From sequence record MT782071.1: a DNA stretch of 64,000 bases. One strand, written 5' to 3'. The notes beneath the pieces are model-generated. The model did not search any database, was not told the origin of the DNA, and saw only the letters and a list, made by a program, of their open reading frames with translations. The position numbers and the translations under genes are program-made. Source of the stretch: Escherichia phage JN02. Positions 5,539-51,340 of this stretch are shown here, one piece after another (the first letter of the stretch is position 1; every line of letters begins with the position of its first letter).

Positions 5539-5554
5539 AAGGGCCGAAGCCCTT
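5539..5554 (-). terminator. rho-independent terminator after goF-like gene
   Basis: minus strand: GGGC-TTCG-GCCC stem-loop followed by TTTTTGCTTT; overlaps the stop codon. Confidence 0.5.
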
Positions 5555-5978
5555 ATTTAAATTTAATTTTCTGAAGTGCATCAATTGCAGCCAAACGCCC
5601 TTGTTCACTTTTAACTGTAATGACCACATCGCCTGATACGATCACCGAACCATCAACAAATTCTATAGAGCCTTTTTTGAAATCTACAGCTGTATCCGGT
5701 TCCGGAACTTCTTCAAAGAATTTAAATTCTGCACCATAAAGCAGAATATCACCTTGCATACTATGAATAGTTCGGCCGTAATCGCCTACGGCTTCTACAG
5801 CAATAACCGAAACGCCGTAACCAATCATCTCTTCCACAATAAAATCTTTGGACAATAAAGTAGTATGCAGATTAGTATTAAGACGTTTACCAGTCGTATT
5901 AAGAAGTCTCAAGAAATTATCTTCTTGTCCTTTGATAATACGATATTTCTTACCAACTTCAAAACCTTTAAAAGCCAT
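5553..5978 (-). CDS. goF: GoF-like protein (mRNA metabolism modulator), assigned by position and size
   Basis: 141-aa ORF downstream of gene 39, same length as T4 GoF; sequence identity not verified. Confidence 0.4.
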   Translation of the reverse strand: MAFKGFEVGKKYRIIKGQEDNFLRLLNTTGKRLNTNLHTTLLSKDFIVEEMIGYGVSVIAVEAVGDYGRTIHSMQGDILLYGAEFKFFEEVPEPDTAVDFKKGSIEFVDGSVIVSGDVVITVKSEQGRLAAIDALQKIKFK

Positions 5979-6162: not shown

Positions 6163-6591
6163 TTATTCCTTAAAATGTGCTTTCAACATTTGATACAAAG
6201 ACCATGCCTGGTCGGTATTTTCGATAGTAATCGTCATCACCGGAAATTCAGACAATTCGTCAAGTTCACCAGAATCTTGCTCTTCAGACGCTTGATACGG
6301 ATTTCCAACTTCGTCAAAGAACTCTGCTTCATTCGTAGAGAGCCAGATAAAGTTTTCATCAAGGATATCACCACCTGTTGCGTATCCAACCGTGCCAGTA
6401 GATGTTAAAATTTTAGTAGGACGTCCGAGATGGTCAACATCTAAAATTTTAAAAGGTTCCATGCCAAGACGTCGTGCATAAATCCCATTATCAGTGTGGT
6501 CTTTAATAAACTCTTCTTGGGCCCGTTTATCTATAAATTGGTACCATGAGTTAACGCGGAATTTATTAGCCATTAGTAAGTTTCCTTCCAA
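6163..6591 (-). CDS. hypothetical protein
   Basis: 142-aa ORF, tightly packed, co-directional. Confidence 0.4.
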
Positions 6592-6845
6592 TAAGTTGTA
6601 CCATTTTCAGTGATTTCACGGAAGATGCCATAGATAGGCATTTCGTCACCGAGTTTTTCGTAAACGTAAACCACTTCGGTGTAGCATAAAAATTCGGTCC
6701 AGTTTTTCTGTACAACAACTAAATCAGGATTAAACAGAACATCTTCAAACTCATCGATGTTTGAATCAGTAGTTACGTTTTTAATGATTTGACGTTTCAT
6801 AATATTCTCCTCTTGTTTTGATAGGTCTATAGTATCATAGACCAT
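6573..6845 (-). CDS. hypothetical protein
   Basis: 90-aa ORF; promoter-like element immediately upstream (6818..6848). Confidence 0.35.
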
Positions 6846-6857
6846 AGTTGTTGTACA

Positions 6858-7382
6858 TCATTTTAGCAAAATAAAATCAACTTGTTCTGCCAATGAACGT
6901 CTAAACATTAATTGACAACTTCCGAGGATGAAATCAGGTGCTTCATAGACCGCGATGTAGTATCCTTTAGCTTTCAAGAGTTCAACATCCACCTGGTCAT
7001 CAAACCATGCATAAACCGCGTCAACACTTTCAAATCCAAAATAGAACCCTTTAGCCCAATCTTCACTCAATTCAAATGTGTGCTCAATTCTATAGTATCT
7101 TAAGATATTTTGTTCAAGGAGTTTGTCTTCATTTACTGTAGGACGATTAGGGACATTATAGTTGTCGCCGTGATGGTAGAAGTTACCTGAGAGTATTCCA
7201 TGCTTATCAAGGAACTCCCATGTTTCTTCAGAGTTGTCGGTGCCCGACCAACCGTACGGCGAACGAGGTTCTTTATTCCAAGAGGTTTCCCAAATTCTGA
7301 CGGCTTTACCGTCTTCGATAGCAATTCCTGGTAATGATTCACGTTGAGTACAAAAACTACGTTCTACGCGGTAAACTAACAT
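6858..7382 (-). CDS. hypothetical protein
   Basis: 174-aa ORF with GGAGAA RBS; early promoter cassette upstream. Confidence 0.4.
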   Translation of the reverse strand: MLVYRVERSFCTQRESLPGIAIEDGKAVRIWETSWNKEPRSPYGWSGTDNSEETWEFLDKHGILSGNFYHHGDNYNVPNRPTVNEDKLLEQNILRYYRIEHTFELSEDWAKGFYFGFESVDAVYAWFDDQVDVELLKAKGYYIAVYEAPDFILGSCQLMFRRSLAEQVDFILLK

Positions 7383-7389
7383 ATTATTC

Positions 7390-7437
7390 TCCTCTGGTTG
7401 ATATGGTTATAATATCAAAACCAGAGGAGAAGTAAAC
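7390..7437 (-). promoter_or_regulatory. early sigma70-type promoter with inverted repeat (PeSL-like cassette)
   Basis: minus strand GTTTAC -35, 17-nt spacer, TATTAT -10; inverted repeat cctctggtt/aaccagagg with proximal arm covering the RBS. Confidence 0.5.
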
Positions 7438-7441
7438 AACT

Positions 7442-7861
7442 TTATGCGAAAGCAGCCGGGCTATATTTTTTAATTTGGAATTCAGGAACTACCATGAACT
7501 GTCCAGCGAAAACGATGTTATAAAGCTTAACACCATCTTCTACCCAACGGTCGCTAATAAATCCAGCGATTTGCTTAGTTTTCCACGGCGTTCCATCAGT
7601 TGCCGCAGCAATAGTGAATTCATGGTCTTTTTCAACAGAAACTGATCTGCATAGTCCCCATTTGAACGCTTTTTCTTCTGGTTCAATGAATTGGCTTGAG
7701 ACGTAGCCAATATTACCATTAGCATCACGAACTTTAACTTGGTTACGGCCAAAAACCGGATCACTCACAGAAAGAACTTCAACCAACTTCCCGGCAACTT
7801 TAGAGCGAGAAGCAACAGATACATATACGTAATCACCTGTAGAGAGATTTACAATATTCAT
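7442..7861 (-). CDS. hypothetical protein, member of tandem paralog triplet
   Basis: 139 aa; shares C-terminal motif DRWVEDGVKLYNIVFAGQFMVV with the two upstream ORFs. Confidence 0.45.
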   Translation of the reverse strand: MNIVNLSTGDYVYVSVASRSKVAGKLVEVLSVSDPVFGRNQVKVRDANGNIGYVSSQFIEPEEKAFKWGLCRSVSVEKDHEFTIAAATDGTPWKTKQIAGFISDRWVEDGVKLYNIVFAGQFMVVPEFQIKKYSPAAFA

Positions 7862-7870
7862 AATAATTCC

Positions 7871-8398
7871 TTAAGCTTTACGAGGAGACACATAGCGAGT
7901 GATTTCAGATTCTTTAACAACTCGGAAGTCACCTAAGAATACGATATTGTATAACTTTTCACCATCTTCAACCCATTGGTCACTAATGAAGCCACACATA
8001 ATATCAGTTTTGCTTGGATATCCGTATTCGTCGATGTAATCAAATTCTTTATCGGTCTGGAATTCAACGCCTTTGCAAAGGGCCCATTTAAACTGTGTAG
8101 TAGGCTCAACGATATCGTTTGAAGCAAATTGGACTCGTATATGTTTTTCAAGGAATTTAGGACTTACGTAAGCATACTGGGCATCTTGTCCGCCAAAACT
8201 AGGAATGATTCGAACTTTAACTTCTTTAATACGTCCCATGCCATTTGTGCGAAGTCCGACAACTTCAACCAGACGACCTGCGGCTTTAGACCGGGATGCA
8301 GTTGATACACGTTTAATTTCACCAATAGTAATCATAATTTTTCTCTCTTTGTTTAAGTTGAATTCATTATACTCCATCCATCCTTGGATGTACAACAT
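7871..8398 (-). CDS. hypothetical protein, member of tandem paralog triplet
   Basis: 175 aa; motif DQWVEDGEKLYNIVFLGDFRVV. Confidence 0.45.
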   Translation of the reverse strand: MLYIQGWMEYNEFNLNKERKIMITIGEIKRVSTASRSKAAGRLVEVVGLRTNGMGRIKEVKVRIIPSFGGQDAQYAYVSPKFLEKHIRVQFASNDIVEPTTQFKWALCKGVEFQTDKEFDYIDEYGYPSKTDIMCGFISDQWVEDGEKLYNIVFLGDFRVVKESEITRYVSPRKA

Positions 8399-8934
8399 TA
8401 ATTTAGAATATTAACTACTGCACTACGTGGAACCACACTAAAGTCACCGGCATGAACAACGTTCAGAAGTTCAACCCCGTCTTCAATCCACTGGTCAGTT
8501 ACCCAGCCACTTACCGGTCCAGCGAATGGTCGACGAATTGAAACTGCTTTACACAACAAGTCTGTAGGCTCAATAGGCTTAATCAGAGTACCGTACATAC
8601 AAGCGATATCCATATCAAAGTGGAGACCATCTTTAACAGGTGCTTCTTCAATCAACAGTTCAAAGTCGGTGCTTGGAAGGGCGGTAGTAGAAATTGTACC
8701 GTATGAATTTTTAATTTCTAAGAATAACCAAGGGCCTTCAACTTGTTTGATGAAGTTAACAATAGTGAAACTATTACCTTGAGTGGCACCTAAAATTTCA
8801 CAAAACTTTTCATAAGCTCGCACTGAAGCACCGTACCAGTTGATTTGTTTTTCGTCTTTCAGGATGTAAGTAGCCGTAGTATTGATATTCATAATGTTTT
8901 CCTGTTTGGTTAAGATAGAAAGATTATACTCCAA
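8398..8934 (-). CDS. hypothetical protein, member of tandem paralog triplet
   Basis: 178 aa; motif DQWIEDGVELLNVVHAGDFSVV. Confidence 0.45.
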   Translation of the reverse strand: MEYNLSILTKQENIMNINTTATYILKDEKQINWYGASVRAYEKFCEILGATQGNSFTIVNFIKQVEGPWLFLEIKNSYGTISTTALPSTDFELLIEEAPVKDGLHFDMDIACMYGTLIKPIEPTDLLCKAVSIRRPFAGPVSGWVTDQWIEDGVELLNVVHAGDFSVVPRSAVVNILN

Positions 8935-8954
8935 CCATCCTTGGTTGTAAACTG
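8908..8954 (-). repeat. 46-bp promoter cassette, copy 1 (near-identical to 50301..50346)
   Basis: gttaagatagaaagattatactccaaccatccttggttgtaaactg; minus strand gives GTTTAC -35, inverted repeat caacca/tggttg, TATAAT -10. Confidence 0.6.
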
Positions 8955-8957
8955 GTT

Positions 8958-9635
8958 TTATCGCTGTTTTACACTTAACGGGTCAGGATTCTCAGGGACA
9001 TCTTCAAGGCCAAGCGCATAACGCTGAGCGTATTTTAACATCAAAATATCTTTAGCACAATCATGAATACTATCATGGGCAACGAATCCTTTTAGCGTAC
9101 CCATCGGTAATGGACACATACTTAATCCTCGTGTCAACGAGTAAGCTTCGATTGCCGTACGAATATCGCGTTGAGCCCAGAATTTAACCGGTTCTAATTT
9201 ATCAGTATCAATCTCGGGTTCAAGAACACCTTCATCACGATAGAGGTCACGAATCAAATCGACCAAGATCGGGAAGTCAAAGCTCATACCACGGCACCAC
9301 ATCTGTGATTTCCATTGGTCAACTTTATTAGCTCGGCAATAATCTAAAAAGATTTTAATACCTTCAAGCGTAGTGACATCGTCTTCAGACGGAGCCAAGT
9401 TTTTACGCGCTTCAGCCGATTGTTCTTTCCACCATTTCATAGTGGATTTAGCGAAAACTCGCTTCCCTTTCTGAGAAGCTAAATTAAATTTAATTCGCTT
9501 ACCTCGTTGAACAAGTTCTTCAAATGATTCAACAACTTCAGGGTCGGAATTATATGCAATAACCGCAAGGTCAATAACAGCCGCTTTTGATGTATTGCCG
9601 AATGTTTCAAAATCTATAATAACATCAGTGCTCAT
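8958..9635 (-). CDS. dexA: exonuclease A (DEDD 3'-5' exonuclease)
   Basis: 225 aa; IIDFETFG...AVIDLAVIA and GFVAHDSIHDCAKDILM match T4 DexA as recalled. Confidence 0.85.
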   Translation of the reverse strand: MSTDVIIDFETFGNTSKAAVIDLAVIAYNSDPEVVESFEELVQRGKRIKFNLASQKGKRVFAKSTMKWWKEQSAEARKNLAPSEDDVTTLEGIKIFLDYCRANKVDQWKSQMWCRGMSFDFPILVDLIRDLYRDEGVLEPEIDTDKLEPVKFWAQRDIRTAIEAYSLTRGLSMCPLPMGTLKGFVAHDSIHDCAKDILMLKYAQRYALGLEDVPENPDPLSVKQR

Positions 9636-9644
9636 AATTTTCTC

Positions 9645-10958
9645 TCAAATAAAATGGACGTCAAACCGACCACGAGTTGTGCCAACATACAATAACTGTT
9701 TAGCTAATTCTGAATCGGCATAATGGATACACGGTGTATAAACAAAGGCCGTGTCAACAGACATACCCTGGGCCTTATGGAAGGTTGATACTGGTAGTGC
9801 CTTCACCTTAGTGAACATACGTTTAGCATCCCAGAATTCGCTCCATGGAGCTTTACCACCTTTATTCCAAAATTTGTATGTTTCTGCGGTCTTAGCCAAA
9901 AACAAATTGAATTTATAAAGCTCTTCTTCAGAAGAAATAACCTTTATATCTTCACGGATGTATTCTTCATCATCCCCGTATGTTTCTACTGTAAGATTCC
10001 AGTATCGTATCATATATTCGCCTGAAACACCACGTGCTTTAACGAATGTAGACGTTTCTACAGCATCTCGAATACGAACGAATTGGCCGTTATTGAAAAG
10101 CATTTCGGTCATATTTTTACCATCTAGCTTATACGTCTTAGTAAATGGCTCCTGTAGAACAATGACTTCGTCTTTAATAAATGGTTTTTCTGTTTCAAGA
10201 AGTTTTCGGCGAATAATTGAATTTAACTTGTCCACTGACTTATTTGTGAATGCCATCATTCGATTTTCGAAAAGGTCTTCAGGAGTTTTAACGACGTTAA
10301 AATAGTTCATCATATACGATTTAAGGTCTGTATATCCATGAACACCATGCCCATCAACTACTTTATCGTAAATCCATTTGCCGTTACGAATATCAGTCGC
10401 AACATCAATAATTGGTGCATTGCTACGTTTAACTTCTGTAAGGTTGCATTGCACGAAGTCTTTGTGTGTGAAGAAAGGACTTAGATACGCAGTTGATTCG
10501 CCTGGGTCTACCGGACGAATCTGGCATCGGTCGCCGATGCCAATTACTGTACACCATTTAGGGATACTAGCTAACATTATTTTAAACAGAGAACGGTCGC
10601 ACATTGATGCTTCATCAAATAACAGTACACGACACAAGGCTAAGTCGGGAACCTTTTTCTGTTCAAACAATACGTTTTCTTCGTATGTAGTTGGGTTGAT
10701 TTTAAGAATGCTATGAATAGTCGATGCTTCTTGACCTGCAAGTTTGCTTAGAACCTTTTTAGCGGCATGTGTAGGGGCTGCTAAAATAATACCTGATTCT
10801 CCAGAAGAAATAAGGGCTTCAACGATGAATCTAGTAAGGGTTGTTTTACCTGTACCAGCAGGCCCATTAATAGTTACGTGATGTTTCTTTTCTTTAATAG
10901 CGTTCATAACAACGTTGAAGGCGTTTTTCTGGCCTTCAGTCAAATCATCAAATGTCAT
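9645..10958 (-). CDS. dda: Dda DNA helicase (SF1B)
   Basis: 437 aa; Walker A GPAGTGKTT, strong resemblance to T4 Dda; syntenic. Confidence 0.9.
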   Translation of the reverse strand: MTFDDLTEGQKNAFNVVMNAIKEKKHHVTINGPAGTGKTTLTRFIVEALISSGESGIILAAPTHAAKKVLSKLAGQEASTIHSILKINPTTYEENVLFEQKKVPDLALCRVLLFDEASMCDRSLFKIMLASIPKWCTVIGIGDRCQIRPVDPGESTAYLSPFFTHKDFVQCNLTEVKRSNAPIIDVATDIRNGKWIYDKVVDGHGVHGYTDLKSYMMNYFNVVKTPEDLFENRMMAFTNKSVDKLNSIIRRKLLETEKPFIKDEVIVLQEPFTKTYKLDGKNMTEMLFNNGQFVRIRDAVETSTFVKARGVSGEYMIRYWNLTVETYGDDEEYIREDIKVISSEEELYKFNLFLAKTAETYKFWNKGGKAPWSEFWDAKRMFTKVKALPVSTFHKAQGMSVDTAFVYTPCIHYADSELAKQLLYVGTTRGRFDVHFI

Positions 10959-50300: not shown

Positions 50301-50346
50301 GTTAAGATAGAAAGATTATACTCCAACCATCCTTGGTTGTAAACTG
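50301..50346 (-). repeat. 46-bp promoter cassette, copy 2 (near-identical to 8908..8954)
   Basis: same 46-mer gttaagatagaaagattatactccaaccatccttggttgtaaactg; early promoter with inverted repeat. Confidence 0.6.
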
Positions 50347-51310: not shown

Positions 51311-51340
51311 ATTATACTCCAACCATCCTTGGTTGTACAT
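51311..51340 (-). promoter_or_regulatory. early promoter with inverted repeat (variant of the 46-bp cassette)
   Basis: attatactccaaccatccttggttgtaca; minus-strand -35 GTTGTACA-like, -10 TATAAT. Confidence 0.45.

Follow-up and report, generated by a model that had tools for sequence, protein, structure and literature searches.

The prototype of the MotB family is the MotB protein of phage T4, which is synthesized abundantly early in infection and binds tightly and non-specifically to both host DNA and modified phage DNA (PMC6070864). It co-purifies with H-NS and StpA only when DNA is present, is toxic to E. coli and provides a two-fold gain in burst size, and the phage transcriptome was barely altered when motB was knocked down (PMC6070864). 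MotB also alters the footprints of H-NS, and 75 host genes are upregulated, one third of them members of the H-NS regulon (PMC7827196). Patterson-West et al. (2021) assigned 102 homologs from phages to MotB (Category 1) or to MotB.1-like groups, which have a C-terminal domain in common, proposed that one of the two genes, motB or motB.1, is a duplicate of the other and, on the basis of HHpred, proposed an OB fold (cold-shock-like) for the C-terminal domain of MotB (PMC7827196). Phage RB69 was described as carrying two motB genes, one motB.1 gene and a 29-aa peptide (PMC7827196, section 3.2). Deletion of T4 motB.1 produced no phenotype, and MotB.1 had no effect on the level or stability of a reporter mRNA; its N-terminal domain was reported to be an LSm/SH3-like barrel related to GoF and Frd.2, and AlphaFold3 gave no confident hexamer of the protein (PMC12152347). 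The three-gene cluster analyzed here is already known: it has been published for RB69, is annotated in RefSeq records of relatives and is represented in Pfam and the PHROGs. As a finding, the cluster is ordinary and adds little.

Gene order and family membership of the locus

Three consecutive minus-strand ORFs were found directly downstream of dexA in the window, by which we mean the whole 64-kb stretch of DNA that was analyzed, and every gene of this region is likewise on the minus strand. In order of transcription, the region begins with dda (9645-10958) and continues with dexA (exonuclease A; 8958-9635), the upstream neighbor that anchors the locus according to the annotation of the homologous regions of HX01, GADS24, RB69 and T4. 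These are followed by ORF3 (8398-8892), a motB.1 ortholog encoding 164 aa, by ORF2 (7871-8335), the canonical motB ortholog encoding 154 aa, and by ORF1 (7442-7861), a second MotB copy of the RB69ORF010c type encoding 139 aa. Downstream of the three lie a motB.2 homolog of 174 aa (6858-7382; annotated as motB.2 in RB69 and assigned to phrog_1106), cef (6573-6845) and then goF; both goF and a second goF-like gene are located 1 to 3 kb downstream of the cluster. The layout of the window, dexA–motB.1–motB–second motB–motB.2–cef, is that of RB69, where the four corresponding genes are called motB.1, motB, "similar to motB" and motB.2. The gene order of the RB69p013–RB69p010 locus (motB.1, 29-aa peptide, motB, "similar to motB") is identical, and its proteins are 84 to 99% identical to those encoded here. 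Conversely, the order in T4 is dexA–motB.2–motB.1–motB–cef, compared to dexA–motB.1–motB–motB-b–motB.2 here, and T4 has one motB-type copy whereas Mosigviruses have two.

The segment from 7300 to 9700 was 95 to 99% identical to many genomes of Mosigvirus, the RB69-like T-even phages. The matching locus of these relatives carries the RefSeq annotation "MotB-like transcriptional regulator," which in the HX01 RefSeq record corresponds to ORF1 and ORF2. Exact database matches exist for ORF1, for ORF3 and for a 175-aa reading of ORF2, the last two under phage JN02 accessions, and the ORF3 protein is identical to JN02 QNI20556. The window belongs to Mosigvirus (RB69/HX01/JN02-like). The cluster lies where MotB is expected, in a Tevenvirinae genome within the early region from dexA to cef, and is transcribed with its neighbors, and ORF2 lies in the same dexA–cef early region as T4 motB, with an early-type promoter at the homologous spot. 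The region is probably the early cluster of motB.1, motB and motB-like genes of a T-even phage related to RB69 (Mosigvirus), and ORF2 of this cluster would act like T4 MotB by orthology.

A preliminary description of this DNA had proposed that the three ORFs share a C-terminal motif, and the motif is present as written in all three (DQWVEDGEKLYNIVFLGDFRVV, DRWVEDGVKLYNIVFAGQFMVV and DQWIEDGVELLNVVHAGDFSVV). When compared by BLASTP, ORF1 and ORF2 were 42% identical over their whole length (E = 8e-32), and ORF3 was 30 to 34% identical to ORF1 or ORF2 over approximately 70 C-terminal residues (E = 5e-11 and 2e-10), so that the pairwise similarity is far above chance. All three ORFs exceeded the gathering score of 25 bits for Pfam PF17613 (motB), with 75.6 bits for ORF1, 125.4 bits for ORF2 and 36.8 bits for ORF3, and are members of this family. 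ORF2 spans the whole model (positions 2-157 of 162, E = 2.6e-36), and ORF3 covers profile positions 82-153 only, which are its C-terminal part. Among the PHROGs, ORF1 (E = 6.6e-51) and ORF2 were assigned to phrog_1671 (MotB-like) and ORF3, over its full length, to phrog_2333 (E = 1.3e-81). The two-domain architecture of MotB, a KOW/SH3-like N-terminal domain with an SRSK.AG.LVEV motif followed by the conserved C-terminal domain, was found as well. The ORFs had also been said to differ at their N-termini, which is correct for ORF3; ORF1 and ORF2 have an N-terminal domain in common (VS.ASRSK.AG.LVEV).

An HMM of the C-terminal domain detected exactly three copies in the 64-kb window, those in ORF1, ORF2 and ORF3, and no further copies, including any counterpart of the RB69 29-aa peptide. 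The motB.2 homolog was considered as a fourth family member and rejected, as it gave no match to this HMM; its BLASTP comparison with ORF3, the only one of the three ORFs with which it was compared, was not significant (E = 0.34). When a profile of the shared domain was searched against 1.84 billion proteins, the family comprised approximately 25 clusters at 50% identity, and the domain was always C-terminal, in proteins of 100 to 250 aa. MotB is a small family whose members are restricted to T4-like phages.

Gene starts and promoters

The lengths of 175 and 178 aa initially given for ORF2 and ORF3 proved incorrect, the true products being 154 aa (ATG at 8335) and 164 aa (ATG at 8892); the length of 139 aa given for ORF1 stands. 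The 178-aa reading would begin at a TTG (8934) that falls within the spacer of ORF3's own promoter, and the 175-aa reading at an ATG (8398) that is upstream of the ORF2 promoter. In an alignment with T4, RB69, HX01 and GADS24, the stretch encoding the extension of the 175-aa reading contained indels in HX01 and RB69 whose lengths are not multiples of three. Because the longer starts conflict with the promoters, and that of ORF2 also with these indels, ORF2 and ORF3 were assigned lengths of 154 and 164 aa, as in the HX01 annotation.

Two strong sigma-70/T4-early-like promoters were found, which agrees with the proposal that these are early-type genes. The early-type promoter of motB.1 (TTTACA-17-TATAAT; 8923-8951, minus strand) scored 11/12 in a consensus scan, and transcription from it is expected to start near 8916, approximately 24 nt before the ATG at 8892. 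The early-type promoter of motB (TGTACA-17-TATAAT; 8366-8394, minus strand) scored 10/12 and sits within the spurious 175-aa N-terminal extension of ORF2; at the corresponding position, T4 likewise has GTTTACA...TATAAT. The regions upstream of ORF3 and ORF2 contain a 64-nt repeat with 78% identity. Thus, of the promoter-like elements that had been attributed to each ORF, those of ORF3 and ORF2 were confirmed, and no comparable site was found for ORF1. The ribosome-binding site of ORF1 overlaps the ORF2 stop codon, and since its start is only 9 nt past that stop (TAAGGAATTATTATG), ORF1 is co-transcribed with ORF2.

The promoter core CCAAGGATGGWTGGAGTATAAT occurs as an exact 22-mer four times in the window, at 8366, 8923, 50315 and 51311, with approximately 24 nt of 5'UTR before an ATG in each case and a chance expectation of 0.01 matches. 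The two ORFs of 311 to 316 aa behind the other promoter copies, together with an upstream ORF of 331 aa, were considered as a paralog array and rejected, as they have no detectable mutual similarity. PeSL cassettes (Arbiol et al. 2010; Comeau et al. 2014), known from T4-type phages, combine a strong early promoter with a stem-loop terminator and recur in variable regions. In the window, an early promoter with its 5'UTR is repeated in near-identical form before ORF3, ORF2 and two other early genes, and the consensus TTTACW-N17-TAYWAT matches the PeSL promoter of T4-type phages (PMC4122927). Judged from its sequence, the fourfold promoter repeat resembles the promoter part of PeSL cassettes (PMC2839356, PMC4122927); no PeSL-type terminator-like stem-loop was found beside these promoters on the minus strand.

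A separate feature was observed at the motB.2-like ORF, whose GAGGAG ribosome-binding site is buried in a 12+6-bp hairpin (7386-7431; -23.9 kcal/mol, z -5.7). A promoter-like site at the same ORF has its -10 element in the loop of the hairpin. Only transcripts that start there would leave GAGGAG free. Hairpin-buried ribosome-binding sites with a promoter in the loop are known from other T4 genes.

Domain composition, age and selection

In ORF2, a disordered linker formed by residues 66-79 connects a KOW/SH3-like N-terminal domain, which is basic (net +6), to a C-terminal domain of the MotB type (FKW...DQWVEDGEKLYNIVF). ORF1 has the same two domains, but its linker is shorter and its N-terminal domain is near neutral. 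T4 MotB (PF17613; PHROG 1671) has this two-domain plan in common with both and is approximately 45% identical to ORF2 and 36 to 37% identical to ORF1, which is shorter than T4 MotB by approximately 15 to 25 linker residues. The N-terminal part of ORF2 carries a charge of +6 and its C-terminal domain -4, for a net charge of +2, and ORF1 has a net charge of +1, with 0 in its N-terminal part; both are less basic than T4 MotB, which has a net charge of +6.

ORF3 is composed of a predicted SH3/LSm-like N-terminal barrel plus one helix, a linker bearing FDMDIACMYGTLIKP and a MotB.1-type C-terminal domain (PTDLLC...GWVTDQWIEDGVELLNVVHAGDFSVVPRS), and it is acidic, with a net charge of -8. Its alignment with 17 MotB.1-type homologs placed it in the MotB.1 subfamily (PHROG 2333; Category 2 of PMC7827196), with the N-terminal barrel and PTDLLC...GWVTDQWIEDGVELLNVVH domain of that group encoded directly upstream of motB, and T4 MotB.1, which Kim et al. 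(2025) place in an LSm-like family, has all three of these features in common with it. Compared to the intact MotB.1 proteins of Tequatrovirus (143 to 145 aa), ORF3 was 47 to 54% identical, and compared to the MotB.1 of most Tequatrovirus it has approximately 20 additional residues, which include FDMDIACMYGTLIKP.

AlphaFold2 models made with family alignments had mean pLDDT values of 81.8 for ORF3 and 80.8 for ORF2, and each contained two small all-beta domains and a low-confidence linker. In both models, the C-terminal domain was made up of four strands, a short helical turn and a fifth strand, an order that is typical of SH3-like small barrels, and the N-terminal domain of the ORF3 model was a five-strand barrel plus a helix. 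The models point to a pair of small SH3/KOW/Tudor-like barrels in each protein; they support the KOW-like N-terminal domain described for MotB (PMC7827196) and are consistent with the SH3/LSm-like one described for MotB.1 (PMC12152347). For the C-terminal domain, neither a helix placed between the third and fourth of the five strands nor structural matches to OB-fold proteins, as expected for an OB fold, were found. The models thus argue against an OB fold for the shared domain and favor tandem SH3/KOW-like barrels over a KOW plus OB arrangement. No solved structures were found among sequence relatives at E <= 0.5, and in a Foldseek search against viral models the confident matches were family members only.

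We also considered whether the three genes are a tandem triplication, as had been proposed. Their paralogy was confirmed for the C-terminal domain; the remainder of the claim was not supported, as ORF3 has a different N-terminal domain and is a MotB.1 ortholog, and ORF1 is a deep branch. A MotB.1-type gene was located directly upstream of motB in 21 of the 21 related loci assessed (17 from IMG/VR plus reference phages), which represent several genera. The N-terminal parts of the proteins encoded by this upstream gene were variable, and the proteins were either of the MotB.1 type, with approximately 145 to 165 aa, or approximately 180 or 250 aa long. The ORF1 type was present at at least 80% identity in 207 of the 760 phage records with at least one MotB relative, and none of the 760 had a match in the 60 to 80% identity band; this type also occurs in Tequatrovirus CrRp10, in the array dexA–motB–motB-b. 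In a neighbor-joining tree, ORF1 was placed on a long branch that fell outside the canonical MotB proteins as a whole (68 of 100 bootstraps), and its distance from ORF2 was approximately that between ORF2 and T4 MotB. A recent tandem duplication giving rise to ORF1 and ORF2 was rejected on the basis of this placement, and by these sequence comparisons the second motB copy is old and branches deeply. Chimeric proteins were found as well: P0155 and P0218 combine an ORF1-type C-terminal half with an N-terminal half of the ORF2 type and of the T4 MotB type, respectively, and in P0060 and P0062 a C-terminal domain of the MotB.1 type follows an N-terminal domain that is KOW-like. Taken together, the distribution, the tree and the chimeras indicate an old, recombining, modular family in a variable early region, not a recent triplication.

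Rapid divergence was not supported either: orthologs within the genus are 84 to 99% identical with dN/dS values of 0.04 to 0.25, although dN is still above that of dexA and dda. Calculated as pairwise averages among Mosigvirus orthologs, dN/dS was 0.04 to 0.11 for ORF3 (with one near-identical pair, which has very few changes, at 0.43), 0.11 to 0.25 for ORF2 and 0.08 to 0.19 for ORF1, compared to 0 to 0.04 for dexA and dda and 0.13 to 0.26 for goF. These values demonstrate that ORF1, ORF2 and ORF3 are under purifying selection. The three evolve faster than the replication genes, like their non-essential neighbors.

Proposed role of the cluster and alternatives

The genes had been described as being of a type associated with host takeover, and this holds for the T4 prototype, with its DNA binding, alteration of H-NS, toxicity and doubling of burst size (PMC6070864, PMC7827196). 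By orthology with T4 MotB, the cluster is likely to act in nucleoid remodeling early in infection. ORF2 would be an abundant early protein that, as T4 MotB does, binds double-stranded DNA non-specifically, and its charge suggests that binding would be probably mainly via the basic KOW/SH3-like N-terminal barrel. It would shift host H-NS and StpA on the DNA, leading to derepression of H-NS-silenced genes and making the infected cell a somewhat better host. ORF1 would be an old second copy with the same fold plan, in which the net positive charge of the N-terminal domain has been lost, and probably a sub-functionalized partner of ORF2. ORF3 would present a different SH3/LSm-like N-terminal barrel on the same C-terminal module, and it is unlikely to coat DNA because it is acidic.

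The C-terminal domain common to the three would be a small five-stranded SH3-like barrel, and its D-x-W-x-E-D-G ... L-x-N-x-V core is invariant. From the pattern of charge we infer that DNA is bound by the N-terminal barrel and that the weakly charged C-terminal barrel is the common module, most likely one for interaction or oligomerization and not the main DNA-binding surface. This pattern also suggests a division of labor among the copies: by charge, a MotB-like activity on DNA and H-NS would be compatible with ORF2, doubtful for ORF1 and unfavorable for ORF3. A more specific proposal, to which we assign a low probability, is that the C-terminal barrel is a hetero-oligomerization module through which MotB, the second MotB and MotB.1, with their basic, neutral and acidic N-terminal barrels, form mixed complexes on DNA. 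If this were true, the ratio of the paralogs could tune the remodeling of the nucleoid and H-NS.

A different possibility for MotB.1 (ORF3), and perhaps for ORF1, is that they act on RNA as LSm/Hfq-like chaperones or mRNA-stability factors, like goF. The relationship of the MotB.1 N-terminal domain to GoF and Frd.2 (PMC12152347) is consistent with such a role, as are the five-strand barrel plus helix predicted for ORF3, its acidity, which makes it an unlikely DNA coat protein, and the proximity of goF and the second goF-like gene. However, neither the level nor the stability of a reporter mRNA responded to T4 MotB.1, the AlphaFold3 hexamer was not confident (PMC12152347), and a protein with a net charge of -8 would also be a poor general RNA binder; we consider a role on RNA improbable.

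It is quite improbable, too, that these genes encode anti-defense or counter-immunity factors, as a diversifying tandem family of which each copy neutralizes a different bacterial defense. The preliminary description had offered anti-defense as an alternative to host takeover, and the analyses described here yielded no evidence for it. Their location in a non-essential, variable early region would suit such factors, and so would the variation of the array (motB.2-motB.1-motB in T4, motB-motB-b in CrRp10 and three copies in Mosigvirus), the swapping of N-terminal domains on a constant C-terminal domain and the dN values above those of dexA and dda. Against this, the dN/dS values of 0.04 to 0.25 are pairwise averages in which diversifying selection is not seen, the copies are old and not recent expansions, T4 MotB has its DNA/H-NS activity and its effect on fitness in ordinary laboratory strains (PMC6070864, PMC7827196), and the family was without a link to any defense system in the MotB literature examined. 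Finally, the reading of one or more copies as decaying duplicates, or pseudogenes in the making, with the motif as residual similarity, is largely refuted and has only a minute probability: the reference records of T4 and RB69 have a MotB.1 that appears truncated or split and one phage has a truncated, 92-aa ORF1 homolog, but here, as in most relatives, each of the three ORFs is intact (clusters of 181 and 205 members, and ORF1 orthologs in 207 records), dN/dS is well below 1, and a re-sequenced clone of T4 does not have the truncation.

The MotB.1 protein of the T4 reference record (NC_000866; 119 aa) ends just after DQWI and is without the last approximately 26 residues of the domain, which is intact in ORF3; it is truncated because of one extra G, and the downstream frame still codes for VELLNVVHAGEYSVVPRSAVVAILN. 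The re-sequenced T4 clone (MZ375356.1) is without the extra G, and its MotB.1 is 143 aa long. Of the two forms, the one of 143 aa was counted on 256 contigs and that of 119 aa on 2; the T4 frameshift site was not matched in IMG/VR in either of two exact-pattern scans. The reference form of T4 MotB.1 seems to reflect a one-base artifact or variant. This truncation bears on the reading of experiments with the 13.8-kDa form, and, on the hetero-oligomerization proposal, the negative results published for T4 MotB.1 may be due in part to the truncated 119-aa form, which is without the last strands of the module. With all of its paralogs intact, the phage type described here is cleaner than the T4 or RB69 reference for studying the shared C-terminal module within a motB.1–motB–motB-like cluster. 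The RB69 record has motB.1 in two pieces, a product of 132 aa and the 29-aa peptide, compared to the one intact 164-aa ORF in the window; the 29-aa peptide is the frameshifted tail of motB.1, severed from it by two single-base insertions in that record.

Reading frame of motB.1 in T4 and RB69

The T4 reference sequence of motB.1, from which a 119-aa protein ("13.8 kDa") is predicted, was found to carry one surplus G after ...CAATGGATTG (NC_000866; 2700-2860 of the T4 comparison locus L003, minus strand), and this base causes the conserved C-terminal domain to be cut off. The motB.1 gene of a re-sequenced T4 clone (MZ375356.1; comparison locus L023, 1090-1250) lacks the surplus G and encodes 143 aa, and the intact form was present in 256 contigs versus 2 for the truncated form. 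Either the reference was missequenced at this base or the surplus G is a strain variant; the truncation matters for published work in which the 119-aa protein was used. The 29-aa "Category 3" peptide of RB69 is in fact the end of motB.1: in the record (NC_004928; comparison locus L004, 3877-4373, minus strand), two insertions of one base each part this C-terminal piece from a 132-aa ORF. The motB.1 gene is a single intact ORF of 164 aa in the window (8398-8892, minus strand) and in phages HX01 and GADS24.

Promoters and predicted hairpin around the motB genes

A 22-nt promoter core, CCAAGGATGGWTGGAGTATAAT, occurs in four exact copies in the window (8366-8387, 8923-8944, 50315-50336, and 51311-51332, all on the minus strand), compared to 0.01 expected, and each is separated from an ATG by a similar 5'UTR of approximately 24 nt. 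The last two copies lie ahead of ORFs of 316 and 311 aa, between which there is no detectable similarity. Together with the 5'UTR, the copies resemble the promoter part of the PeSL (promoter-stem-loop) shuffling cassettes of T4-type phages.

The motB ortholog, ORF2 (7871-8335, minus strand), is preceded by an in-frame "extension" of 21 codons (8336-8398, minus strand) that contains the ORF2 promoter and whose start ATG overlaps the stop codon of motB.1 (TAATG). In many relatives, gene callers give ORF2 versions of 165, 172, 175, 186, or 197 aa, while in HX01 a separate 22-aa CDS, "modifier of transcription," is annotated at this position instead. Both the long versions and the 22-aa CDS look like annotation artefacts.

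Upstream of the motB.2-like gene (6858-7382), the RNA is predicted to fold into a strong hairpin at 7386-7431 (minus strand; -23.9 kcal/mol, z -5.7). The 3' arm of the hairpin covers the GAGGAG ribosome-binding site of that gene, and the -10 element of a promoter-like site, TTTACT-16-TATTAT (7436-7409), falls in its loop. The hairpin would mask the gene from translation in read-through transcripts and leave it unmasked in transcripts initiated at the promoter-like site.

Small-barrel genes and natural chimeras

Both goF and a second ORF, of 141 aa, at 5553-5978 and 6163-6573 (minus strand), matched phrog_622 (E values of 1e-37 and 1e-21), with no similarity to each other by BLASTP. The 5.5-8.9 kb region, comprising this pair and the MotB genes, is a cluster of small-barrel protein genes.

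Natural chimeras were also seen in the MotB family (database proteins P0155, P0218, P0060, P0062, P0273, and P0276). In some, a canonical MotB N-terminal half is followed by a C-terminal half of the type in ORF1, the second MotB copy (7442-7861, minus strand); in others, the N-terminal domain is KOW-like and the C-terminal domain of MotB.1 type. A linker motif, D-x-D-(V/I)-x-x-M-Y...P, recurs ahead of many MotB.1-type C-terminal domains and is additionally present at the extreme N terminus of the 180-aa forms.
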